A stretch of DNA of 10,479 bases from Methanosarcinales archaeon (GCA_003661125.1 QMVO01000038.1:1-10479); one strand, 5' to 3'; positions 569-10,479 are shown, counted from the stretch's first letter. The notes: a model not told the origin generated them from the letters alone. Numbers and translations: made by a program.

Positions 569-641
569 AGCCTGGTAGTGTAGCGGACAATCATTTGAGG
601 CTTTGGACCTCAAGACGGTGGTTCAAATCCACCCCAGGCTA
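569..641 (+). tRNA. tRNA-Gln (anticodon UUG), archaeal-type identity elements (A1:U72, A73), CCA not encoded
   Basis: Folded by hand. Acceptor stem AGCCTGG/CCAGGCT (7 bp). U8 A9 present. D-arm GTG..CAT with A14, G18 and G19. Anticodon stem TGAGG/CCTCA with loop CTTTGGA, so U33 and anticodon TTG. Variable loop AGAC. T-arm GGTGG-TTCAAAT-CCACC. Discriminator A at 641, followed by atc, so no CCA. Confidence 0.8.
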
Positions 642-644
642 ATC

Positions 645-668
645 TTTTGTAAACGTTCCCTTTTTAGC
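645..668 (+). promoter_or_regulatory. copy A of conserved motif TTTTGTAAACGTTCCCTTTTTAGC; candidate promoter (upstream element plus TATA-like T5A) for the HicB-like gene
   Basis: One of four same-orientation copies of TTTGTAAACGTYCC(N)TTTTTA. It lies 3 nt after the tRNA and 50 nt before ATG 698. An additional TTTTATTTAA box lies at 682-691. Confidence 0.4.
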
Positions 669-697
669 AAAAATAAAACATTTTATTTAATTGAAAA

Positions 698-862
698 ATG
701 ACGACTAAAAAAATATCTATTGTTATAGAAAAAGATGAAGACGACGATTTTTTTGTAGCCGAATGTCCATCTCTTCCGGGATGTTATACACAGGGGGAAA
801 CATTGGGTGAAGCTTTGAAAAACATACATGAAGTGATTGAATTGTGTCTTGAAGAAATGTAA
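698..862 (+). CDS. solo HicB-like antitoxin N-domain protein (UPF0150 / RNase-H-like-fold HicB family), 54 aa, no DNA-binding C-domain and no adjacent hicA
   Basis: The ORF is below the length cutoff of the track and was translated by hand: [54 protein letters not shown]. The signature of HicB-family antitoxin N-domains (I.IEKDEDGGYVAE.PDLPGC.TQGDTLEEAL.N..EAIEL.LE) is matched almost position for position. The stop TAA (860-862) lies inside motif copy B. Confidence 0.6.
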
Positions 863-883
863 ACGTCCCCTTTTTAATTCCGC
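857..883 (+). promoter_or_regulatory. copy B of conserved motif (ATGTAAACGTCCCCTTTTTAATTCCG); candidate promoter for the 901-2427 gene; TATA-like CTTTTTAATT centred ~26 nt before ATG 901 (leaderless geometry)
   Basis: Sequence identity to copies A, C and D. It overlaps the stop codon of the HicB-like gene. There is no SD before ATG 901, which is consistent with a leaderless transcript. Confidence 0.4.
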
Positions 884-900
884 TTCCCGTTTTTTCAAAT

Positions 901-2427
901 ATGCCATACAAAACCAATGCAGACTTACCAAAGAGCATTCGCAATAGCTTGCCTGAACACGCGCAGACGATATTCCGCAAAGCTTACAATGCTGCTTCTG
1001 AACAGTATGGCACGGATGATGAAGCACGATTAAACAAAATCGCTTGGGCTGCAGTAAAGAAAATTTACGAAAAGGTTGATGACAAATGGGTACTCAAGAA
1101 AGGCAAGAAAGCAATAGCTGATGCCTTGGAAATACATCCGCATGATCACAGACCGTATATGGTAAATGATGATGGCACTACATATAATTCATTTGATTTC
1201 AATCCAATCTATACAGCCGAATACAATAGTGACGATTGGGTACCAGTCGCAAAAGTCGGTCAGGCTATGCGATTAGCGGGAAATTCTTCCGAGTTCCCTT
1301 CTATTATCTTTCCCACGGCAGAAGGGTTTAAAAAAGCTGTCGAATTGTTCAACGAACTTAAGGCGCCTGGATATGTGAATAGAAATCACAATCCTGACGA
1401 TATTATACCAGGTGCAAACATAACAGCGCTGAAATTTGAAGACCCTTTCTTATATGCGAAATTCAACGAGACCGGTATTGCTGCCATAAATGACGCAGTT
1501 AAAGTCGGCAGGAGTATAGAAGCTATTCCATTCAAAATCGACAAGGATCATCTTCTTACTGATTTCTATGTATCTGGGATTTCTGTGCTAACAGAAGGTC
1601 ATACTCCCAGTTGCACTCCACAAATGGGTTGTGCTGATATTCCCGACATATTGGCAATTTCTGGAAAGCCAAAAACTGCACCTATCGATTCTGAATGGTC
1701 ATTTCGTGCTGCAGACTACACACAAGAGCAATTAGAGCGTGCTTGTGTTTGGGTTGATACAAGCAAACCAAAGAGCGAGCGTACCAAAAATGATTGCAAA
1801 CTGCCTATTGCACGACCTGACGGTACGATTGTTTGGCATGCCGTTCGCGCTGCCATGGCGGCTCTATTAGGTGCGCGAGGCGGAGTCGATATACCAGCGA
1901 AAGATAGAAAAACAGTCTATAACAAACTGGTAGCTGCATATCGGTTATTCGATAAAGAGCCGCCAAAATTAAAAGGAGGTGATATGATGGGAGAAGAAGT
2001 AGTCTATACTGCTGAGCAGTTAGAAGAGCGCATTGCAACTGCAGTTGCTGAAGTAACGGAAAAACTCAATAATGAACACGCAGTTGCTCTTGCGCAAATA
2101 AAAGAAGAGAAAGAGAAAGAAATAGCTGAAAAGGAAAAGGAATGGCAAGAGCAATTAAACGCAAAAGCAAAAGAACTGGAAGAATTGAGAAATCAGATAG
2201 CAAACGAAAAACGCGAGCAGATCAAAGCCAAATTACAGATGGATGAGGAAGCGGCAAAATTGCTTGAATCGTTTGAAATCCCTCATCTTGATACACTGCT
2301 AAAACTTGATCTGCCAATCGGACAACAAAATGTAGGTGTTGCAGTCGCTGGTTCGCCAGCATCAGAATCTCAGCAAAAAGTCAAAAAAGTGGGGAGATGG
2401 GATGGTACAAAATGGGTAGAAGAATAG
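901..2427 (+). CDS. head-morphogenesis protein candidate: N-terminal ChaB-like domain (~75 aa), large central domain, C-terminal Glu/Lys-rich coiled coil (scaffold-like); possible in-frame internal start at 1984 with perfect SD
   Basis: 508-codon ORF. The N-terminus [32 protein letters not shown]...[19 protein letters not shown] matches the ChaB family (E. coli ChaB begins MPYKTKSDLPESV..LP.HAQDIYKEAFNSA...AWAAVKHEY). The C-terminal ~150 aa ([61 protein letters not shown]...) is heptad-like and charged. It sits immediately upstream of decoration-like and major capsid genes. Confidence 0.55.
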
Positions 2428-2446
2428 AAGGAGGTGATAAAAAAAC

Positions 2447-3337
2447 ATGAGTGCATTTTCCGGTATCCAAAAACCGACAAACAAAATTGTTGCCGTTGGT
2501 GACCCACTCGTAGCTGATAGAAAAGTGGGTGGCACAGTAACAAATATGAAACCCGGTAGGTTAGTCAAACGTGGCTCTACTGACTTCGATATTGCCATAG
2601 GAACCGCTTTCGATGTCTGTGGATGGTTGGGCTATGAGCAAGCGCATCCAAGTTATCGCCCAACTGATGTTGATACTGCATATGCCGCAGATGACATGGC
2701 GCCAGTGCTATACGGCGGCAAATTCGTTATCGTAGGCTCGTTAGTTAAGGGATGTGTTGTCACACAAGGCGAGTATCTTGCGAATTGGACGAATGGGCAG
2801 GTAATAGGTCCGATAGCAATGATGGAAGGCGGGTTAGCTTTAGGTATCCCGTTCGAGAAAGCTACCTCTGAGCAAACAACCTACATCGAATTGCCGGCTG
2901 ATATGGTTGTGAAGGATGTGATTGTGGACGTATCTACAAATGTCGCATCATCGCATATTGACATCGGTATCCTTTCAACCGAATCGGGTGGCGATGCAGA
3001 TGGGTTCCTCGATGGCGAATCATGTGCAGCCGCAGGTAAGGTGGAGCATAATATGGTCGATGCTACTGCCGCGAACAACACTCTTGGTGCTTTGCTTGTC
3101 GAATCCGACATCAAGAGTGCCGATGGGACAGCTCTATTTTACAGCGTGCCCAAACAACCAGGACATGTCTGCGATGGTACTGCAAAGACTATTACGTACA
3201 CTACTTCAGATCATGCTATCGAAGGAACGTTCTGGGTAGTTCTCGAAGCAGAAGGATTTAATATCGTAGGCAAAGCAGTGGAATCCGTAGATGCGAGTTC
3301 CGCGGCACAAGACATAATGCTTTTAAGCAGCATATAA
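2447..3337 (+). CDS. hypothetical head-associated protein (possibly decoration or accessory capsid protein), 296 aa
   Basis: The ORF lies 10 nt after GAAGGAGGTGAT (2427-2438). It is positioned between the scaffold-like gene and the major capsid gene. It is rich in Gly/Asp/Thr/Val, typical of beta-rich virion proteins. I recognise no specific family. Confidence 0.5.
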   Translation: MSAFSGIQKPTNKIVAVGDPLVADRKVGGTVTNMKPGRLVKRGSTDFDIAIGTAFDVCGWLGYEQAHPSYRPTDVDTAYAADDMAPVLYGGKFVIVGSLVKGCVVTQGEYLANWTNGQVIGPIAMMEGGLALGIPFEKATSEQTTYIELPADMVVKDVIVDVSTNVASSHIDIGILSTESGGDADGFLDGESCAAAGKVEHNMVDATAANNTLGALLVESDIKSADGTALFYSVPKQPGHVCDGTAKTITYTTSDHAIEGTFWVVLEAEGFNIVGKAVESVDASSAAQDIMLLSSI

Positions 3338-3361
3338 AAAGGAGGTGAGAAAAAATAAAAA

Positions 3362-4228
3362 ATGGCTGATGCAACAAATTCGTTAGAAGAGTTCTCGAAG
3401 TATGTAGATGCAGAATTGGTAGAACCGTTACGTGCAGTTCTGATAGGCCGTAAAATCGTGCCAGTAACGCCAGAGCATGGACTCGGTGTGTCCGCAGTCG
3501 AATTCCACAAGATAGTGGAGATGGGTGAAGGTGTGGTAACATACAGTTTCTCCGATGCTGGCGAAGACGAAATCAATATTACACCAACCACACTTAAACT
3601 GCCGATACACATAAAAGATTACAGAATAGACCGCAGGCATTACGAATCGTATCGCGAGAAAGGTATAAATATTGATAACAGTACCGCGCTGAGTGCTGCT
3701 TTCGTTGCTGCAAACAAAGAAGATGCGACAATCATTCGTGGCTATGCTGGTGATGGGTCTACATATGATATCAAAGGGCTATATGAAGGTGCCGGCAACA
3801 CATACGCAGGCAGCGATTTTGGTACCGCCGGTAATCCCACGGATGCAGTCGCAGGAGCAATGGATGCATTGGAACAGGACGATGTCCCCGTTTCAAGCTG
3901 CAATCTCATTCTACATCCGACACAGCGAAATGAACTTCGTGCACTTCGGAATAGCTATGGAATACGAGAAGAGCCAGAAGTATTGGAAATGCTGAATGGA
4001 GGGGCAATTTACAGCTCGAAAGCACTCACTGCCGGTACGGGATTGCTCATTCCAACAGTAAATTTGGCAAGACCGTATTTCGACTATTTCCTTGGTGTCG
4101 ATTGGAGGACTGAGCATGGTACAGAAAGCGAGCACCCTGATACAAGCGATTTGCATGGACGTGTATATAGCACAGGCGTATTGAGAATCAAGCATGATGT
4201 AGCGATCTGCACAATCACGGGGATATAA
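3362..4228 (+). CDS. major capsid protein, encapsulin-like (Linocin M18 / family-1 encapsulin shell) HK97 fold
   Basis: 288 aa. Colinear with Thermotoga maritima encapsulin. LIGRKIVPV..HGLGVSAV compares with LYGRKFVDVEGPYGWEYAA. LKLPIHIKDYRIDRRHYESYREKGINIDNSTALSAAFVAANKEDATIIRG compares with [50 protein letters not shown]. The C-terminal NLILHP...YFLGVDWRTEH...RVYSTGVLRI compares with YTLVINT...LILGQDLSIGY...RLFITETFTFQV. The length also matches, and AAAAGGAGGTGA lies upstream. Confidence 0.7.
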   Translation: MADATNSLEEFSKYVDAELVEPLRAVLIGRKIVPVTPEHGLGVSAVEFHKIVEMGEGVVTYSFSDAGEDEINITPTTLKLPIHIKDYRIDRRHYESYREKGINIDNSTALSAAFVAANKEDATIIRGYAGDGSTYDIKGLYEGAGNTYAGSDFGTAGNPTDAVAGAMDALEQDDVPVSSCNLILHPTQRNELRALRNSYGIREEPEVLEMLNGGAIYSSKALTAGTGLLIPTVNLARPYFDYFLGVDWRTEHGTESEHPDTSDLHGRVYSTGVLRIKHDVAICTITGI

Positions 4229-4244
4229 CTATTATTTGCTGAAC

Positions 4245-4481
4245 ATGGCAACAACAGAGACACGCAAGAAGAAGAAAGTGAAAGAGACAGAAAAAGTACC
4301 AGAAAAAACAAAAAAACCACGATTCTTAGAACTCGTCAAAGTACGCGCACTAATCAATATCTCGTTTGGCAAACGTCCCGGGTATGACCGTAAAAGGTAT
4401 CAGAGAGGCGAAATATTTTATCTCACTCGTGAGCTAATCAAAGAATTAGGCGAAGGACGAGCAGTAGAAATAGTGAAATGA
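4245..4481 (+). CDS. small Lys-rich basic protein (78 aa), function unknown; the track starts it at TTG 4236, but ATG 4245 is more likely
   Basis: The ORF is immediately downstream of the capsid gene. Its N-terminus KKKKVKETEKVPEKTKKPR is highly basic. Its stop overlaps the start of the next ORF (ATGA at 4478-4481), suggesting translational coupling. Confidence 0.45.
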   Translation: MATTETRKKKKVKETEKVPEKTKKPRFLELVKVRALINISFGKRPGYDRKRYQRGEIFYLTRELIKELGEGRAVEIVK

Positions 4482-4735
4482 CATTGTCAGAGGAACAGTT
4501 GGAACAATTATATCGCATCACAGTAGAGAATCGGCGCGATATTGAATGGATCCGAAACCGACTACAGCAGGGAAACAGTGTAATGGATTCTCTCAATCAG
4601 CGTCTGAAGATGATTGAATCGGAAAGCGCGTATCTCAGAGGCAGAATAGGTGCTTTTCTCATTTTCTTTGCTTTCGCAATCTCGCTCGGTTTACAGGGAC
4701 TGAATTGGATTTTCTCATACTTCTGGAGGTCATAA
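4478..4735 (+). CDS. small coiled-coil protein with C-terminal hydrophobic (transmembrane-like) segment, 85 aa
   Basis: The N-terminal 55 aa are heptad-like (EEQLEQLYRITVENRRDIEWIRNRLQQ...). The C-terminus GAFLIFFAFAISLGLQGLNWIFSYFW is a ~23-aa hydrophobic stretch. The start overlaps the upstream stop. Confidence 0.45.
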   Translation: MTLSEEQLEQLYRITVENRRDIEWIRNRLQQGNSVMDSLNQRLKMIESESAYLRGRIGAFLIFFAFAISLGLQGLNWIFSYFWRS

Positions 4736-4742
4736 AGAAAAA

Positions 4743-5165
4743 ATGAATCTGATTTCGGGAACATACACCGATATGGATATAGTGAAGAATAATTATATCC
4801 TCACTGAGCTATATGATACAGACACTCTTGACGCTCAAATTACGAATGCTGCGCAGGAAGCAAAACGCTGGGTAAACAATTTCCTTGGACGTCAAACAGA
4901 TTTCACGGCTGCCGAATTAGAAGAAGCAGAGAATGAATGCATTGTATCCGCAGCATGTTTGCGAACTGCATGCATTCTACAACAGAAACAGCAAGAACGA
5001 GGTAGTATCGCAGAAGAAACTTTACGCGATTGCAAAGAAGCAGAAAAAATTTTAGCTATTTGGATGAAAAATCATGGCTTAACCCCGCCAGACGAAATGA
5101 AAAAAAGCGGACGTATCAATCCTGAACCTTTATATGTTTATCCTGACGTAGAGTATGTCATATAG
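4743..5165 (+). CDS. putative head-tail connector / neck protein (gp6-like by position and size), 140 aa
   Basis: GGAGGT (4722-4727) lies upstream. The ORF is in the block after the capsid gene, where head-completion proteins usually sit. It is an acidic protein. The family assignment rests on synteny only. Confidence 0.4.
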   Translation: MNLISGTYTDMDIVKNNYILTELYDTDTLDAQITNAAQEAKRWVNNFLGRQTDFTAAELEEAENECIVSAACLRTACILQQKQQERGSIAEETLRDCKEAEKILAIWMKNHGLTPPDEMKKSGRINPEPLYVYPDVEYVI

Positions 5166-5290
5166 GAGGATGAAAATAGGAATAGGAAAAATGACAATTG
5201 ATAGTTACTTTTCATATCCCGAAGATGAACAGGAAAGAAGAGAATATATAGAATTGGAGAAAAAAAGGAAAAAGACAGAGGTAAAAGAAA

Positions 5291-5605
5291 ATGGATAATA
5301 GAGAAAAGAAACTGTTTTTAGAAGAATTGGATAAGCGTGCACGGCGATGGCAAAGAAAACGCGAAGATGCATTAAGCCGACTTGAACAACCAAAAAACGA
5401 ATACGAAAAGAAGAGAGCTGAAATTGATTTGTCTGTTGCAGAGGCTGCATTAAAACGCATTGAAAAACGTAAAGAAGAATTGGTAACACCAAAAGAGGAA
5501 AAGAGCGAAGAGAAGAAAGAAGAAAAGAAAAGAGAAGAAAAAAAGCATAAAAAGGAAGCAAAAAGACAATGGGAAGCGACAAAAAACATAAAAGAGAATG
5601 ATTAA
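5291..5605 (+). CDS. Lys/Glu-rich low-complexity coiled-coil protein, 104 aa
   Basis: GAGGT lies 8 nt before ATG 5291. The product is almost entirely K/E/R (EKRKEELVTPKEEKSEEKKEEKKREEKKHKKEAKRQWE). The stop overlaps the next start (ATGATTAA at 5598-5605). Confidence 0.45.
   Translation: MDNREKKLFLEELDKRARRWQRKREDALSRLEQPKNEYEKKRAEIDLSVAEAALKRIEKRKEELVTPKEEKSEEKKEEKKREEKKHKKEAKRQWEATKNIKEND
5491..5566. repeat. purine-rich (GAA/AAG)-like low-complexity tract inside the K/E-rich gene
   Basis: Direct inspection shows long runs of A/G with few C/T. This explains the spurious antisense ORFs 5205-5589 predicted in this region. Confidence 0.6.
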
Positions 5606-6029
5606 ATCTATCTTAGATGGAATCAAGCATATTCTCCAGAATGATGCAGACACAAAAGACGTGATCAAATCCTATTATTATCATCTTCCCGTATCAGGTG
5701 CACGCGACCCTTGCTGCATCCTCGGATATAATATCTCGTTTAATATAGACAAAGAACGTTCTTATCTCAATAGTTCAATACCTGGACGATTCTGGTCTGC
5801 TTCTGTTTCTATTTTACTTTTAGGTAGAGTTTATGAACGTACTCCTTCGCGGTTTGAAGCAATGATAGAAATTCTGGATAAATTACAAGGCGATGCATAT
5901 GAAGCGCTCACGAATGACAAAACACTAAACGGTACAGTCCTCAAGAGTCAACCTGTTTCTATACACAATATCTTCCTCGATGAATACTATGGATATGAGA
6001 TATCTATTGAGATCACAAAATCTGATTAA
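5598..6029 (+). CDS. putative neck / tail-completion protein (position-based), 143 aa
   Basis: The ORF is translationally coupled to the upstream gene. It is the last gene of the + strand neck block before the reverse-strand cassette. I recognise no family. Confidence 0.45.
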   Translation: MIKSILDGIKHILQNDADTKDVIKSYYYHLPVSGARDPCCILGYNISFNIDKERSYLNSSIPGRFWSASVSILLLGRVYERTPSRFEAMIEILDKLQGDAYEALTNDKTLNGTVLKSQPVSIHNIFLDEYYGYEISIEITKSD

Positions 6030-6385
6030 AAGTAGTCTTCAAGTTTCTTATTAATAGCTTTCATTTCTTTTTTATTTTTTATCTCTTCTCTCCACCGCTT
6101 ATTTAGTTTTTCCAATGCACCCGGCATCACGTTTGGCCAGAACATACCGAAAAATGCGAACCCCAAACAGATGAAAATAGTAGCTGGGTCTAAGCCCGAA
6201 TAAATAGCAGTAGGGACATTTGAATACTTTGGGTATTCTCCTCTGCCTTTGAAACTAAGAACCCTCTCATTATACTCAATGTTGATGCCTGATGCTTCCG
6301 CGAGCTTAATTATTTCTTCGTAATTGCCATGCCATGCTTGGAATGTAAGTTCGATCATACGGTCTTCAATCATTTTTCCTATCAT
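6026..6385 (-). CDS. hypothetical 119-aa protein with central hydrophobic segment (ATIFICLGFAFFGMFW), co-oriented and downstream of the RNA ligase gene
   Basis: From the ORF track. Its start context on the reverse strand is AGGAAAAATGATTGAAG. It shares a TTAA overlapping-stop arrangement with the convergent + strand gene at 6026-6029. Confidence 0.45.
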   Translation of the reverse strand: MIGKMIEDRMIELTFQAWHGNYEEIIKLAEASGINIEYNERVLSFKGRGEYPKYSNVPTAIYSGLDPATIFICLGFAFFGMFWPNVMPGALEKLNKRWREEIKNKKEMKAINKKLEDYF

Positions 6386-6477
6386 TTTTTACATTGCCTT
6401 TCAATTCTGCTAAACGACTTTTCCAGAAGTATTCACGAATTTTCATATCGTCTTTATCTACATCTATTTGTCCTTTA

Positions 6478-7608
6478 TCATTTATTTTCATTTTTTATGG
6501 CAAACTCTTCTGACAAATAACTATATATCTTACTTGCTAATTTTTTATCATATTCTTGTGCAAAATACCGCATACAAGTTCTTTTATCGTGAACAATATC
6601 TAAATTTTCTTTCAAATACTTCTCTTTTATCTCCGCTTTAAATCTTTTCTCAAAAGCTACTTCATTCATTATCTTGCGAATCCTCTCTTCTTGTTGTACT
6701 ATATCACTTTCTTGGAACTCTTCTAAAAGCAACGATTTAATCAAATCAAAAGAAGGATTGTCTGTTTCTTCATAGGCGTTTATCACTGTTATTAATATTG
6801 AATGTTTTGGTATTCTATTGTCTTTCCAGTGCACATCCAAAACCAAATCAGGCTTCGCTTTATATTGTATTGCACTTTCTGAGATGACATACCAAACAGT
6901 GCCTTCTATACCTCTTACGATTCCCTCCGTATCCTGAAATATGTTTTCATTAAGCCATTTTCTTAGTGCTTCGTATTCTTCAATGAATTCTATTTTAGAT
7001 GTAAAATTCTTTAAAAGCTTTGCAGTTCTCAATCCATTCAATTTGAGTTCTGTGGGAGGGACTATTTTCTTAGGGAATACACCGAATAGCGCAGCGCAGT
7101 CAAGTAAAGTATCATACTCTACTAATATCTTATTTCTTTTTCCGTATAGTTCAAAGCTGATGTTACATTTATTCTTTAATATTATCTCAGGTATCTCGGG
7201 ATATGTGTCAAGCATTTCGCTCCACAAACTCCGGAAGTTACCAAATCGGGATTCCTCTAACGTTGGTCGTAGTCGTGTTTTATAACTCACAAATTCATTG
7301 CCTTCTGCATCAAAATAAGTATATCCTAAGATATTTGTCCCATCTAACTTTTCATATACTTCTATCCTGTCTACATTTTCAAAATGAATATAATTACCGT
7401 CCCTATCAAAAGGATATACCATCTTTGGTGTAGCCCATACATATTGAGGACATTCTTTATCATTTACATGGGTGATGTAAAGCATCCCATAGGTTGAATG
7501 TCCATCTCGTCTGATATATCCCTTTAATGTATTATTATTAAAGGTATCTCTCACTTCAAACTCTTCTACATTCTTGGAACTGATATTAAAAGGATATTCA
7601 GTCATCAT
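6478..7608 (-). CDS. ATP-dependent RNA ligase-like covalent nucleotidyltransferase (Rnl2/Rnl3-like), 376 aa, with ~50-aa N-terminal extension and ~120-aa helical C-terminal domain
   Basis: Nucleotidyltransferase motifs occur in the canonical order and spacing. Motif I is VYEKLDGTN with K87 (T4 Rnl2 has EKIHGTN; Rnl3 is the KxDGxN type). Motif III is ISFELYGK with E153, 66 aa after motif I. Motif IV is TEGIVRG with E228. Motif V is QYKAK with K250/K252, 22 aa after motif IV. The reverse-strand SD GAGGAG lies 5 nt before ATGATG. Confidence 0.6.
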   Translation of the reverse strand: MMTEYPFNISSKNVEEFEVRDTFNNNTLKGYIRRDGHSTYGMLYITHVNDKECPQYVWATPKMVYPFDRDGNYIHFENVDRIEVYEKLDGTNILGYTYFDAEGNEFVSYKTRLRPTLEESRFGNFRSLWSEMLDTYPEIPEIILKNKCNISFELYGKRNKILVEYDTLLDCAALFGVFPKKIVPPTELKLNGLRTAKLLKNFTSKIEFIEEYEALRKWLNENIFQDTEGIVRGIEGTVWYVISESAIQYKAKPDLVLDVHWKDNRIPKHSILITVINAYEETDNPSFDLIKSLLLEEFQESDIVQQEERIRKIMNEVAFEKRFKAEIKEKYLKENLDIVHDKRTCMRYFAQEYDKKLASKIYSYLSEEFAIKNENK

Positions 7609-7706: not shown

Positions 7707-7739
7707 ATTTGTAAACGTCCCCTTTTTATTTCTATTCCG
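7707..7739 (+). promoter_or_regulatory. copy C of conserved motif (ATTTGTAAACGTCCCCTTTTTATTTCTATTCCG); candidate promoter for the major tail gene, in the divergent intergenic region shared with the RNA ligase gene
   Basis: The TATA-like CTTTTTATTT lies ~50 nt upstream of ATG 7780. A leadered transcript would carry the SD AAGGAGGAAG. The 21 nt core is identical to copy B. Confidence 0.4.
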
Positions 7740-7779: not shown

Positions 7780-8694
7780 ATGGCAAAAATGCCGATTTCT
7801 GGTGCGAAGGCGATAGAATACGTCGCCGAGGATTCAATAGGGAGTGGTACTTACGGAGTAACACCAGACAATCCAACGATGAAATGGCTCGGATTAGTAA
7901 ATCCATTCACTCCACACATAGCCAAAGGGTACGAAGAAGTACGTTATCTCGGTGCTTACGATGCAACAGATATGTTGCAAAAAATGCGAAATATGAAAGT
8001 GGATGGAGAACTAACCGCATCACTGACTTACAAACCGCAGGATTGGGATTTCATGCAGTATATCACAGGCAGCACTACCGGTCTATCAGACTCTGTCGAT
8101 TCATTAAGCATCGCGCAGTACACAGATGAGAAATGGATATTGTATAAGGGATGTATGCTCACGAGATGGGAACTGACCTTGCCAAAAGAAGGAATTGCAA
8201 CCGTAGATGTGGATATGACAATAGGAGATGTAGCAGACCCGACTGGCACTGATTTCATAGGTACGGGCTCGCATGCATCAGAGAGTACAGATGACCCGTT
8301 CCTGTGGGAAGACATAACAGGACTTAAGATGGATTCTAATGATCCGCCTACTACAGAGATTGCGCATTCTGTCGGCGATCTGACACTCAGCATAACAAAT
8401 GAAGTCGAATTACCGAAAGATATTAGCTCAACGAAATGGACGCGAGCTGAAGGTGCAGTCGTAAAGAAGAGGGACATATCGGTCTCGATGGAATTGACCT
8501 GGGTTGATATTGATTCCTTTTTCACATTAGTGAAAAACGGCACGAAACAAAATTTGCAGTTCACACTCGGTGGTAAGACATTTACTATTAAGGGACTCAT
8601 TCCGCCTGAATACAATCCAGAGATTACACCCGATAACTTTATTGGTGAGACGGTTACATTCCTAATGGACCAGCCAGACTTGACAATAGCGTAG
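7780..8694 (+). CDS. putative major tail protein, 304 aa
   Basis: A strong SD (AAGGAGG) is present. The ORF is located directly upstream of the G/GT chaperone pair and the tape measure gene, the canonical siphovirus order MTP-G-GT-TMP. Its Thr/Asp/Gly-rich composition suggests a beta-rich protein. Confidence 0.5.
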   Translation: MAKMPISGAKAIEYVAEDSIGSGTYGVTPDNPTMKWLGLVNPFTPHIAKGYEEVRYLGAYDATDMLQKMRNMKVDGELTASLTYKPQDWDFMQYITGSTTGLSDSVDSLSIAQYTDEKWILYKGCMLTRWELTLPKEGIATVDVDMTIGDVADPTGTDFIGTGSHASESTDDPFLWEDITGLKMDSNDPPTTEIAHSVGDLTLSITNEVELPKDISSTKWTRAEGAVVKKRDISVSMELTWVDIDSFFTLVKNGTKQNLQFTLGGKTFTIKGLIPPEYNPEITPDNFIGETVTFLMDQPDLTIA

Positions 8695-8806
8695 CTTTAT
8701 ATATACCTAGTGTATAGCGGATTATATATGAGTGCCAGGGTGGGGCATAGGTTAAATTCTATGCGCAGGAAGGGAAAGGCACCATAAAACAAGGAGCAAG
8801 AACAAA

Positions 8807-9229
8807 ATGAGAACGAAAAAGATAGGTAATTACGAGTTTAAATTCTATTCTCGTGATGAAATTACATACGGTGCGATGCAGCGTGTCAAACGATTTTTGA
8901 TGACACGCGTGCTCGCAATGATGAAAGGCGCGGGCAAAGAAGAAGAAATATTCGAGCGGATGTTTGAGAACGCCGATAAACTCGCGGAATATATTCAGCT
9001 TGTACAGGAAGAAGAAGAAACAAATGATATCATTGCTATCATGCTCGTGACGAACAAGGACTACGATGAAATTGCAGATTTACCGATTTCAGTCATTGAA
9101 GCACTCAAGGAAGAAGTAAAAACAGAGGCGGGCGGTGATATTGCGGGTTTTTTGAATGGCTTAGGTATCAGTATCAGCTCGTATCTCGAAACGATGTTCA
9201 CGGAAGAGAAGGGCAAGAAAAAGATGTAA
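8807..9229 (+). CDS. tail assembly chaperone (gpG-like), 140 aa, acidic
   Basis: SD AAGGAG is present. The position between the major tail and tape measure genes is canonical. The ORF ends in a Lys run (KGKKKM) containing an A-rich slippery tract, and the -1 frame is open for 84 more codons. Confidence 0.6.
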   Translation: MRTKKIGNYEFKFYSRDEITYGAMQRVKRFLMTRVLAMMKGAGKEEEIFERMFENADKLAEYIQLVQEEEETNDIIAIMLVTNKDYDEIADLPISVIEALKEEVKTEAGGDIAGFLNGLGISISSYLETMFTEEKGKKKM

Positions 9230-9476
9230 TCAAATCTTTTCTCCCCAAGCCCGCTGGGCAATATGCTGAAGAAATAGCTCAGTGGCTAAAAGGAAAGAGC
9301 ATAAAAGACGACCGCATAATCGAATACACGCTCATGTCTCATTTCGGCTGGTCGGAGAAGACCTTATATGAGACTTCCCTGAATACTATTCAAAATGCAT
9401 TATTTATTTTAGAACGGATTGCAAAGCACGAACAGTTAATTCTTTCCAGATCGCGTAAAAATAAACAGCATTTGTA
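8807..9476 (+). CDS. predicted G-T fusion product made by -1 programmed ribosomal frameshift at AAG AAA AAG (9215-9223), extending to TAA 9474-9476
   Basis: The -1 frame has a stop at 9136-9138 and is open from 9139 to 9476. It overlaps the last ~30 codons of G and continues 83 codons past the G stop. The heptamer G_AAA_AAG lies at the overlap. This G/GT architecture is conserved in tailed viruses. Confidence 0.45.
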
Positions 9477-9500
9477 AACGTTCTATTTTAAACTTTCTAC
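9468..9500 (+). promoter_or_regulatory. copy D of conserved motif (CATTTGTAAACGTTCTATTTTAAACTTTCTAC); candidate promoter for the tape measure gene; TATA-like TATTTTAAAC centred ~28 nt before ATG 9518 (leaderless geometry)
   Basis: It shares TTTGTAAACGTTC with copy A. There is no SD before ATG 9518. The motif contains the TAA stop of the GT extension. Confidence 0.35.
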
Positions 9501-9517
9501 TTTTCCATTAAAATAAA

Positions 9518-10479
9518 ATGCCGGGAAATATTGTGGAGATTATTATAAAAGCAAGAGATTTAGCTTCCTCTGCATTTCGGCAAGTACAAAATCAAATAGC
9601 GACAACTAAAACTATTGGAGTTTCTGTTGCTTCCAAACTTAAGAATGTGGGGAGAGCACTTTATTCTACCGTAAATACATACTTTATTCCTGCAGCTCTC
9701 GCGATTGCAGGAGTTGCATTTGCTATTAAAGGACTTATCGATGCGTTTGGTGATTTTGATATGGCAATGAAAGGTGTGCAAAAGACAACAGGCATGTCAG
9801 AAGAAGAAATCGACGCCCTTGGCGAAGATTTTAAAGAAATGTCTACTCAAATTCCGCTTTCTGCAAAAGAACTCGCTGATATTGGAGCAATTGCCGGTCA
9901 ATTAGGTATTCAAGGTTCTGATAATATTACTACTTTTACCGAGAGTGTAGCAAGAGTTTCAATTGCTCTAGATATGACAGCAGAAGAGGCGGCAACATCA
10001 ATGGCAAAAGTCAGTAATGCTTTTGGGCTACCTGTTACTCAAGCTGATAATTTAGCATCTTCAATTAACACACTCGAAAATACTACTGCAGCAAAAGGCA
10101 GGGATATTATTGCATCTATGACTCGGATGGCAGCATCCGGGGCTCAATTAGGCTTAACTGCTGACGCTGCAGCTGCACTCGCTGCTACTCTCATCGCAAT
10201 GGGAATGCCTGCCGAGCGTGTTGGAACTCGACTCAATACAGCTTTTACACAGATGGCAAAAAATGTTGGGGATATGGCAGCGCAAATGGGGATGTCAGAA
10301 GAGGAATTACGAGCATGGATAGACAGAGATGTAATGGGGGCTCTCAATGCATACATAGAAATGCTGCGCGAAACTCCGAGTGAAATCGATAGAATAACAA
10401 TGGCAAATGAAGTTTTTGGTGCTGTTGGCGGTAAAGCAATTGCATCATTGGCAACAGGTTACGATGATTTACAAACGAA
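9518..10479 (+). CDS. tail tape measure protein, TP901-family type core, N-terminal 320 codons (continues beyond the window)
   Basis: Translated by hand: no stop is reached before the window end. There is an N-terminal hydrophobic helix (YFIPAALAIAGVAFAIKGLIDAF). The characteristic TMP core is present: FKEMSTQIPLSAKELADIGAIAGQLGIQGSDNITTFTESVARVSIALDMTAEEAATSMAKVSNAFGL...GRDIIASMTRMAASGAQLGLTADAAAALAATLIAMGMPAERVGTRLNTAFTQMAK. Confidence 0.85.
   Translation, partial: MPGNIVEIIIKARDLASSAFRQVQNQIATTKTIGVSVASKLKNVGRALYSTVNTYFIPAALAIAGVAFAIKGLIDAFGDFDMAMKGVQKTTGMSEEEIDALGEDFKEMSTQIPLSAKELADIGAIAGQLGIQGSDNITTFTESVARVSIALDMTAEEAATSMAKVSNAFGLPVTQADNLASSINTLENTTAAKGRDIIASMTRMAASGAQLGLTADAAAALAATLIAMGMPAERVGTRLNTAFTQMAKNVGDMAAQMGMSEEELRAWIDRDVMGALNAYIEMLRETPSEIDRITMANEVFGAVGGKAIASLATGYDDLQT

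Follow-up and report, generated by a model that had tools for sequence, protein, structure and literature searches.

A tRNA gene, a shortened HicB-like antitoxin gene and a predicted RNA ligase gene in the head–tail module of a Methanosarcinales virus: probable independent add-ons

Several viruses of archaea are known to carry genes for RNA maturation or for antitoxins. In HGTV-1 and its kin, tRNA genes occur together with Rnl2 ligases, RtcB and a CCA-adding enzyme, and a role in tRNA maturation or repair has been proposed (PMC8651126). Antitoxins without a partner toxin have also been described. The viral solo Phd homolog SMV1 gp44 was shown experimentally to neutralize the host Doc toxin (PMC11065993), and VapB without its toxin is carried by archaeal tailed viruses (PMC8651126). 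On the host side, solitary hicB genes are known in Methanosarcina (PMC10865869, PMC9694453), and a host HicB-solo is induced on MetSV infection (PMC9694453). Here we describe a 10,479-nt stretch of DNA from a Methanosarcinales archaeon (GCA_003661125.1, QMVO01000038.1:1-10479; hereafter the window) in which a tRNA-Gln gene, a solo HicB-like antitoxin gene and a predicted RNA ligase gene lie among the structural genes of a virus.

The first-pass annotation of the window had read these three elements as one coherent RNA-directed set. That all three are present within a structural module was borne out, for the tRNA by ARAGORN and Rfam, for the HicB by Pfam and PHROG, and for the ligase by motifs and fold. 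That they form a set was not: they are distributed independently among related viruses, and for that reason the idea of a joint kit is not supported. The three elements occupy two separate variable positions of the head–tail module. We consider it probable that they are independently acquired add-on genes, comparable to the “morons” of phages, rather than a co-inherited system.

Three accessory elements and their distribution

The window is the head–tail module of a Methanosarcinales tailed virus or provirus, in the ANME-2/Methanolobus neighborhood. We assign it there because an NCBI record identical to its capsid protein is filed under Methanosarcinales archaeon and because capsid homologs about 50% identical are located in Methanolobus and Methanosalsum genome assemblies. 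The same sequence was independently assembled in two further samples (contigs L001 and L002). Together, the window and the 12.5-kb contig L001 make about 12.7 kb of DNA visible for this virus lineage. The accessory features, including the small open reading frames (ORFs) that accompany the ligase, are as follows.

569..641, + strand: tRNA-Gln gene, anticodon UUG (Rfam RF00005; ARAGORN, anticodon TTG, 568-642)
698..862, + strand: solo HicB-like antitoxin ORF, C-terminally shortened, 54 aa (Pfam, PHROG)
6026..6385, - strand: 119-aa ORF with one hydrophobic segment, last gene of the minus-strand cassette (ORF list)
6366..6491, - strand: 41-aa ORF overlapping its two neighbors, the ligase and the 119-aa ORF (also a gene call on L001)
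6478..7608, - strand: predicted ATP-dependent RNA ligase of an unnamed family, 376 aa, GC content 0.33 (motifs, AlphaFold model)

A single-sequence capsid search of IMG/VR gave no match, and a search with the capsid alignment as query succeeded. Such alignment-based scans gave 126 capsid-related loci, each with up to 10 kb of flanking sequence on either side of the capsid gene, in which the ligase and the HicB were sought by tblastn and by profile hidden Markov model (HMM) scans. None of the 126 loci carries the ligase family and none carries this HicB subfamily. The reverse comparison gave the same picture, with this HicB subfamily in none of about 40 ligase loci. When the lists of capsid contigs and ligase contigs from IMG/VR were compared by eye, no contig was common to both; about 18 of the capsid contigs are 42–73 kb long. 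Just four other loci have a tRNA gene within 10 kb of the capsid gene, and these are tRNA-Leu or tRNA-Trp, never tRNA-Gln.

The closest syntenic relative is a 49-kb IMG/VR contig (L082) that has the order scaffold, 296-aa capsid partner, capsid, head completion and tail tube, the tube protein being 60% identical to that of the window. In L082, a 68-nt spacer replaces the 1.6-kb cassette that in the window carries the ligase and the two small ORFs on the strand opposite to the structural genes. GC content is 0.28–0.38 in the cassette ORFs, 0.30–0.48 in the neighboring genes and 0.42–0.48 in the large structural genes. Relatives differ in the slot 5′ of the scaffold gene, which in the window holds the tRNA and the HicB. 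This slot is occupied by a ribbon-helix-helix gene in L082 (632-820), by tRNA-Leu followed by a LAGLIDADG homing endonuclease in L089 (400-987), L095 (7117-7702) and L098 (7081-7741, here with an additional tRNA-Trp), and by tRNA-Leu plus a 70-aa ORF in L102 (1666-1975).

The tRNA gene matches RF00005 along the entire model (positions 1-71 of 71), with 59.9 bits against a gathering score of 29 and an E-value of 3e-11. Its acceptor end reads AGCCUGG...CCAGGCU-A, giving A1-U72 as the first pair and A73 as the discriminator, and the gene has no encoded CCA. We take A1-U72 to be the archaeal tRNA-Gln pattern of the GatDE/tRNA-Gln literature. Among tRNA-Gln genes on ligase-bearing contigs, three of four have U1-A72 as the first pair. 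An exact 28-mer from the 3′ half of the window tRNA was not found in IMG/VR, and no integrase adjoins the gene. Codon use in the window (CAA 58, CAG 46) is almost equal and gives no signal for a codon-supplementation role. Upstream of the tRNA, contig L001 stops at window position 157, and the window extends just 156 nt beyond that point, so that two assemblies break within about 570 nt of the tRNA; a repeat, a genome end or a virus–host junction could account for this shared break.

The HicB-like ORF scores 38.8 against PF15919 (HicB_lk_antitox, cutoff 27) and 32.3 against PF21748 (UPF0150, cutoff 27.3), and it matches PHROG 497 “HicB-like” at 3.7e-12. Its product is 72–81% identical to cellular HicB proteins of 79–81 aa, for which the named sources are ANME-2, Ca. 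Argoarchaeum, Methanosarcinales and Methanomicrobia. The two full-length homologs that we looked up stand in an apparently cellular context, each followed by a gene for a 75-aa HicA (PF07927), either directly adjoining or with a few bases of overlap. No HicA-like ORF was found in any frame of the window or of L001 at E<=10, under conditions that detected the positive controls. The HicB ORF is toxin-less within the visible DNA, and the adjacent hicA that characterizes a HicAB type II toxin–antitoxin module is absent.

The N-terminal domain of this HicB is incomplete, and the 79-aa homologs run on for about 25 further residues. DNA homology to the cellular hicB genes (79% over 139 nt) ends at about position 855, three to five bases short of the stop codon; that stop is provided by the TAA in a 23-nt viral repeat motif described below. 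In the model of a 79-aa homolog, the confident part consists of strands 1–3 and helix 38-65, and the 15 C-terminal residues of the monomer are disordered. Set against that model, the window ORF retains strands 1–3 and about 18 residues (two thirds) of the helix. Comparison with the cellular genes over 40 codons gave a dN of 0.09 and an omega of about 0.07, with dS saturated; the HicB protein sequence has therefore been under constraint. A second 54-aa HicB, cut at the same point, lies on an apparently cellular contig (L176 523-687), where a type I restriction-modification operon (hsdM, hsdS, Bro-N, hsdR) begins 50 nt downstream, and no HicA gene is called on that contig. Truncated forms of HicB thus recur.

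PADLOC assigned no defense family to the HicB, the ligase or the small ORFs. By its resemblance to chromosomal Methanosarcinales antitoxins that are paired with HicA, the HicB ORF encodes a credible candidate for a decoy antitoxin. To this extent the counter-defense role proposed at first pass gains support; its extension to a joint kit with the ligase and the tRNA does not.

The ligase family and its neighborhoods

Against PF09414 (RNA_ligase, an Rnl2-like family) the ligase scores 18.6 bits with an E-value of 0.0022. The cutoff is 27, and the evidence from sequence alone is therefore sub-threshold. Only 8 of 41 family members match PF09414 at E<=0.01. The Pfam Rnl1 model (PF09511) gave no match to the ligase, PDB searches by sequence and by profile gave chance matches only, and tblastn against 50,697 phage records found no homolog. 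The hhalign comparison with T4 Rnl1 was not significant (probability 4.8%, E 0.0084), and motifs III–V nevertheless align.

Motifs and fold are more informative. The residues K87-x-D89-G90, E153, G233/E235/G236 and K250/K252 (motifs I, III, IV and V) are invariant in 41 aligned members, a set that points to the covalent nucleotidyltransferase superfamily, with K87 as the predicted adenylylation site. The AlphaFold model (pLDDT 89.4) comprises an N-terminal beta-rich module, a nucleotidyltransferase core and an all-helical C-terminal domain, without an OB fold. Foldseek placed T4 Rnl1 as the top PDB match to this model (E 1.6e-9), with DNA ligases at 0.03 or worse. In a viral structure library, the top matches are RnlA-type RNA ligases. 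As modeled, the enzyme is of the RNA-ligase type by fold and not of the DNA-ligase type, in agreement with the first-pass annotation.

The family is large. A first search returned more than 300 homologs, and 724 representatives at 50% identity were obtained from 1.84 billion proteins. Members occur on archaeal virus contigs and also on contigs that resemble bacteriophages, some with SLT transglycosylase genes. In about 10 members of 718–762 aa (P0302, P0320, P0330, P0348, P0352, P0363, P0389, P0410, P0425 and P0431), the ligase profile is matched in two stretches, the first of which ends near profile position 254, past motif V. This pattern suggests that several hundred residues have been inserted, perhaps as an intein.

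The nearest homologs with usable context are 64–65% identical and lie on three independent contigs of about 10–11 kb that share one gene array: a ~300-aa protein, the ligase, an MCM helicase one to five genes downstream, and DUF5131. YopX is present on two of these contigs and a PCNA-like gene on one; none of the three has a tRNA or this HicB subfamily. We found no fixed partner of the ligase when 337 neighboring ORFs from 42 loci were clustered, as no family was present in more than 6 loci. The ligase flanking genes in L003 and L004 have neither an informative domain nor a Walker A motif. For the 119-aa ORF of the window cassette, there is no Pfam, PHROG or PADLOC family, and relatives were found only in copies of the same virus.

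The most recurrent neighbor, at 6 of the 42 loci, is a small calcineurin-like phosphoesterase (L132 7688-8308; also L134, L144, L158, L160 and L163). RlaP nucleotidyltransferases, another Metallophos protein and a DSPc dual-specificity phosphatase occur sporadically near the ligase; coordinates of such neighbors or ligases are 14518-15342 and 18398-19108 in L166, and 5441-6136 and 12388-12777 in L168. L166 also bears a second, short PF09414 RNA ligase. The phosphoesterase, RlaP and phosphatase neighbors are possible traces of RNA end-processing partners.

The surrounding head–tail module and its repeat motif

The structural genes around the two accessory positions are all on the + strand.

901..6029, + strand: head module, consisting of the scaffold-like gene, the 296-aa partner, the capsid gene and small head-completion ORFs to 6029
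901-2427, + strand: ChaB-domain/scaffold-like gene, 508 aa, with N-terminal ChaB (PF06150, 4e-20) and a coiled-coil C-terminus
2447-3337, + strand: conserved capsid partner, 296 aa; 114 of 132 searched sequences (130 loci) pair it with the capsid gene
3362-4228, + strand: major capsid protein, encapsulin-like, HK97-type (PF04454, 2e-16)
7780..10479, + strand: tail module, consisting of tail tube, chaperone and tape measure
7780-8694, + strand: tail tube (PF18906, 1e-15)
8807-9229, + strand: tail chaperone, with an apparent frameshift extension to 9477
9518 onward, + strand: tape measure, running past the window end (PF10145, 1e-27)

A megablast search of the entire window against the same phage records gave no match. 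Two genes of the module may yield additional products. The ribosome-binding sequence AAGGAGGTGATA, which is used before the next two genes, recurs inside the 508-aa gene (site 1965-1989), immediately 5′ of ATGATG at 1984, and a nested 147-aa scaffold-like product may arise from this internal start. The chaperone ORF terminates right after a GAAAAAG run (9217-9223), and the other frame (9181-9477) is open to 9477. The region 9215-9229 resembles a programmed frameshift site, as is typical of tail assembly chaperones that precede a tape-measure gene.

A 23-nt motif, TGTAAACGTYCCCTTTTTA, is present in four copies in the window against 0.09 expected by chance.

648..670, + strand: copy 1 (TGTAAACGTYCCCTTTTTA), 6 nt past the tRNA, with the HicB start 28 nt further on
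858..880, + strand: copy 2, whose TAA is the HicB stop, 21 nt before the scaffold-like gene start at 901
7710..7732, + strand: copy 3, in the ligase–tail tube intergenic region, 48 nt 5′ of the tube start at 7780
9473..9495, + strand: copy 4, degenerate, 23 nt before the tape-measure start at 9518

The copies lie 21–48 nt 5′ of the HicB, scaffold, tail tube and tape-measure starts, and they adjoin both insertions, that of the tRNA and HicB and that of the ligase cassette. The TAA of the motif doubles as the stop of the preceding small gene in the case of the HicB, the ORF at 9334-9477, and the ribbon-helix-helix gene of L082. Among 184 loci, the core TGTAAACGTYC was found only in the window virus and in L082, at equivalent gene boundaries. 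The L082 sites (816-826, 5558-5568 and 13837-13847) include one before the scaffold gene, where a canonical TTTATATT box comes next, and one before the tube gene. Judged by position and recurrence, the motif is probably a lineage-specific late promoter and possibly also an oligo-T terminator. A scan for sigma-70 promoters and intrinsic terminators was uninformative; a sigma-70 model is expected to fit an archaeal virus poorly.

Alternative readings and comparison with known systems

Independent acquisition would have filled the two slots separately. Slot 1, upstream of the scaffold gene, would have received tRNA-Gln(UUG) and 54 codons of an antitoxin gene like those on Methanosarcinales chromosomes. 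Slot 2, which separates the head-completion genes from the tail tube gene, would have received the low-GC, opposite-strand cassette, with two small ORFs and an RNA ligase predicted to be catalytically intact. The biochemical activities, and any part played in counter-defense, are what we infer from these identities. The HicB fragment would be transcribed from its own motif copy along with the late genes, and could bind the host HicA RNase as a decoy once the labile HicB of the host runs out in infection. Late expression would fit a decoy that is required as the host antitoxin decays. The tRNA may supplement or replace host tRNA-Gln(UUG), and the ligase, with a layout like that of the tRNA ligases T4 Rnl1 and Trl1, may seal RNA breaks with 5′-phosphate and 3′-hydroxyl ends.

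None of the three elements need serve counter-defense. The HicB could be a decaying fragment left by illegitimate recombination, the tRNA a codon supply or an attachment site, and the ligase part of the virus’s own RNA or replication metabolism. The loss of the last 25 or so HicB residues, with hicB homology stopping exactly at a viral motif, is consistent with this, as is the similarly cut copy beside a restriction-modification operon on an apparently cellular contig. Relatives of the virus are found inside genome assemblies, and the group may be temperate; for haloarchaeal proviruses of tailed viruses, tRNA genes are the usual integration sites (PMC8651126). The closest ligase homologs, too, sit beside MCM, DUF5131 and PCNA genes. 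However, the HicB ORF is intact, stands behind a promoter-like motif and shows a low omega despite saturated synonymous change, and the part that is kept is the confidently modeled core of the fold. The tRNA is full length and high scoring, with no integrase next to it, and the codon counts give no clear sign of codon supply. We consider it unlikely that all three elements are unrelated to counter-defense.

The joint kit read the tRNA as a replacement substrate, the HicB as an antidote to HicA and the ligase as a means of tRNA or mRNA repair, together countering host defenses that cleave RNA. Each element singly has a published precedent (PMC10264068, PMC11065993, PMC8651126). All three are genuine and RNA-related, related cellular genomes have HicA beside a near-identical HicB, the ligase has a fold like that of the tRNA-repair and splicing ligases T4 Rnl1 and Trl1, and its top neighbor elsewhere, the small metallophosphoesterase, is a possible end-healing enzyme. 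Against this, we found no related locus where the elements co-occur, and in the window they are in separate slots, on opposite strands and of differing GC content. The ligase homologs closest to that of the window belong to an MCM neighborhood, on contigs without a tRNA or this HicB. The expected enzymology is also incomplete within the visible DNA. Anticodon-nuclease-type RNases leave 2′,3′-cyclic phosphate and 5′-OH ends, for which an ATP-dependent ligase needs a kinase/phosphatase, as T4 Rnl1 does Pnkp. No Pnkp-type end-healing kinase/phosphatase that would make such ends ligatable was found among the genes of the window and L001. Moreover, HicA cleaves mRNA, which a ligase is not expected to restore usefully. 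A joint kit is, on balance, improbable.

A bolder form of the joint reading would have the ligase found a distinct virus-borne RNA-ligase clade that, in Methanosarcinales viruses, works with the viral tRNA and the 54-residue HicB decoy against RNase-based abortive infection, an archaeal parallel to the way in which T4 counters PrrC with Pnkp and Rnl1. We regard this as a long shot.

Several points nevertheless weigh against independent acquisition, or against a working decoy within it. Beyond the visible DNA, the genome could encode an end-healing kinase/phosphatase, more tRNAs or a HicA. The capsid loci reach at most 10 kb per side, and the contig comparison used pattern-based scans that can miss members. 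The HicB profile is narrow, and more distant HicB-like or UPF0150 proteins in relatives may have been missed. A tRNA gene within 10 kb is commoner at loci of the ligase family (9 of the 37 derived from IMG/VR, including two near-duplicates) than at capsid loci (4 of 126), which hints at an association of ligase and tRNA that is confounded by the mostly much larger genomes of the ligase carriers. Three RNA-related elements in 10 kb could reflect one selective pressure even without genetic linkage. Finally, the loss of its last 25 or so residues may inactivate the HicB fragment.

Two further readings concern the ligase only. It might act in genome replication, either as a DNA ligase or by sealing nicks in DNA/RNA hybrids, as the three homologs one to five genes upstream of MCM, one of them with a PCNA-like gene on the same contig, would allow. 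The poor Foldseek scores against DNA ligases, a post-catalytic domain that is all-helical and lacks an OB-like beta domain, and the position of the gene outside any replication module in the window make this very improbable, and we rejected a DNA-ligase identity on fold grounds. A role in virion assembly, suggested by the annotation of T4 Rnl1 (gp63) as “RNA ligase and tail fiber protein attachment catalyst” and by the adjoining tail tube gene, is hardly to be entertained for a gene that is on the opposite strand, is missing from L082 and 126 related structural modules, stands in non-structural contexts elsewhere and has no significant sequence similarity to T4 Rnl1.

If the elements were acquired independently, as we favor, each has its own significance. 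Should the HicB fragment neutralize HicA, the stolen-antitoxin form of counter-defense, shown for a Phd homolog in Sulfolobales viruses, would extend to HicAB and to viruses of methane-cycling archaea, and a minimal 54-residue antitoxin core would be defined. Once its substrate is known, the ligase would extend the catalog of RNA repair enzymes and might prove to be of practical use. The unnamed ligase family and the promoter-like motif are the most original by-products of the analysis. The broader message is modest: the structural modules of archaeal tailed viruses may have insertion hot spots that gather host-interaction genes singly.

A tRNA, a toxin-less antitoxin and an RNA ligase are each a kind of viral accessory gene already described. 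The combination, which the first pass took to be new, is so only narrowly, because archaeal tailed viruses with tRNAs, RNA ligases and RtcB, and viral toxin-less antitoxins, are on record (PMC8651126, PMC11065993). Like HGTV-1 and other archaeal tailed viruses (PMC8651126), the window virus combines tRNA and RNA ligase genes. HGTV-1, however, has 36 tRNAs, ligases of the Rnl2 and RtcB types and a very large genome, whereas the window has one tRNA and a ligase of another family, in separate slots. In T4, where Pnkp and Rnl1 (gp63) reverse the damage done by PrrC, Rnl1 is likewise an ATP-dependent RNA ligase encoded by the virus; it too has about 375 aa and an all-helical C-terminal domain behind the nucleotidyltransferase core. 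The window ligase differs in having no significant sequence relation to it, no visible Pnkp, an archaeal host and an isolated cassette. The archaeal Rnl3 enzymes (MthRnl, 5d1o; Pab1020, 2vug; Palaeococcus pacificus, 8uc*) are only 14–15% identical to the window ligase, and the contexts of its family that we inspected look viral.

The HicB resembles the viral toxin-less antitoxins Phd (SMV1 gp44, PMC11065993) and VapB (PMC8651126) in being toxin-less, of cellular type and plausibly expressed after early infection. It differs from them in belonging to the HicB family and in being C-terminally shortened, and it is a predicted antitoxin. In the hicBA modules and solitary hicB genes of Methanosarcina (PMC10865869, PMC9694453), HicB is also a small single-domain protein without a DNA-binding domain. 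Those genes are chromosomal, whereas the window HicB lies in a viral structural module behind a promoter-like motif. Phage tRNAs may escape tRNA-targeting defenses or supplement codons (PMC10264068). Either role is possible for the single viral tRNA here, and codon use in the window gives no signal. Apart from the archaeal setting and the putative nature of the promoter motif, the ligase cassette resembles the morons of phages: it is on the opposite strand, deviates in GC content, is absent from L082 and stands at what appear to be promoter/terminator boundaries.

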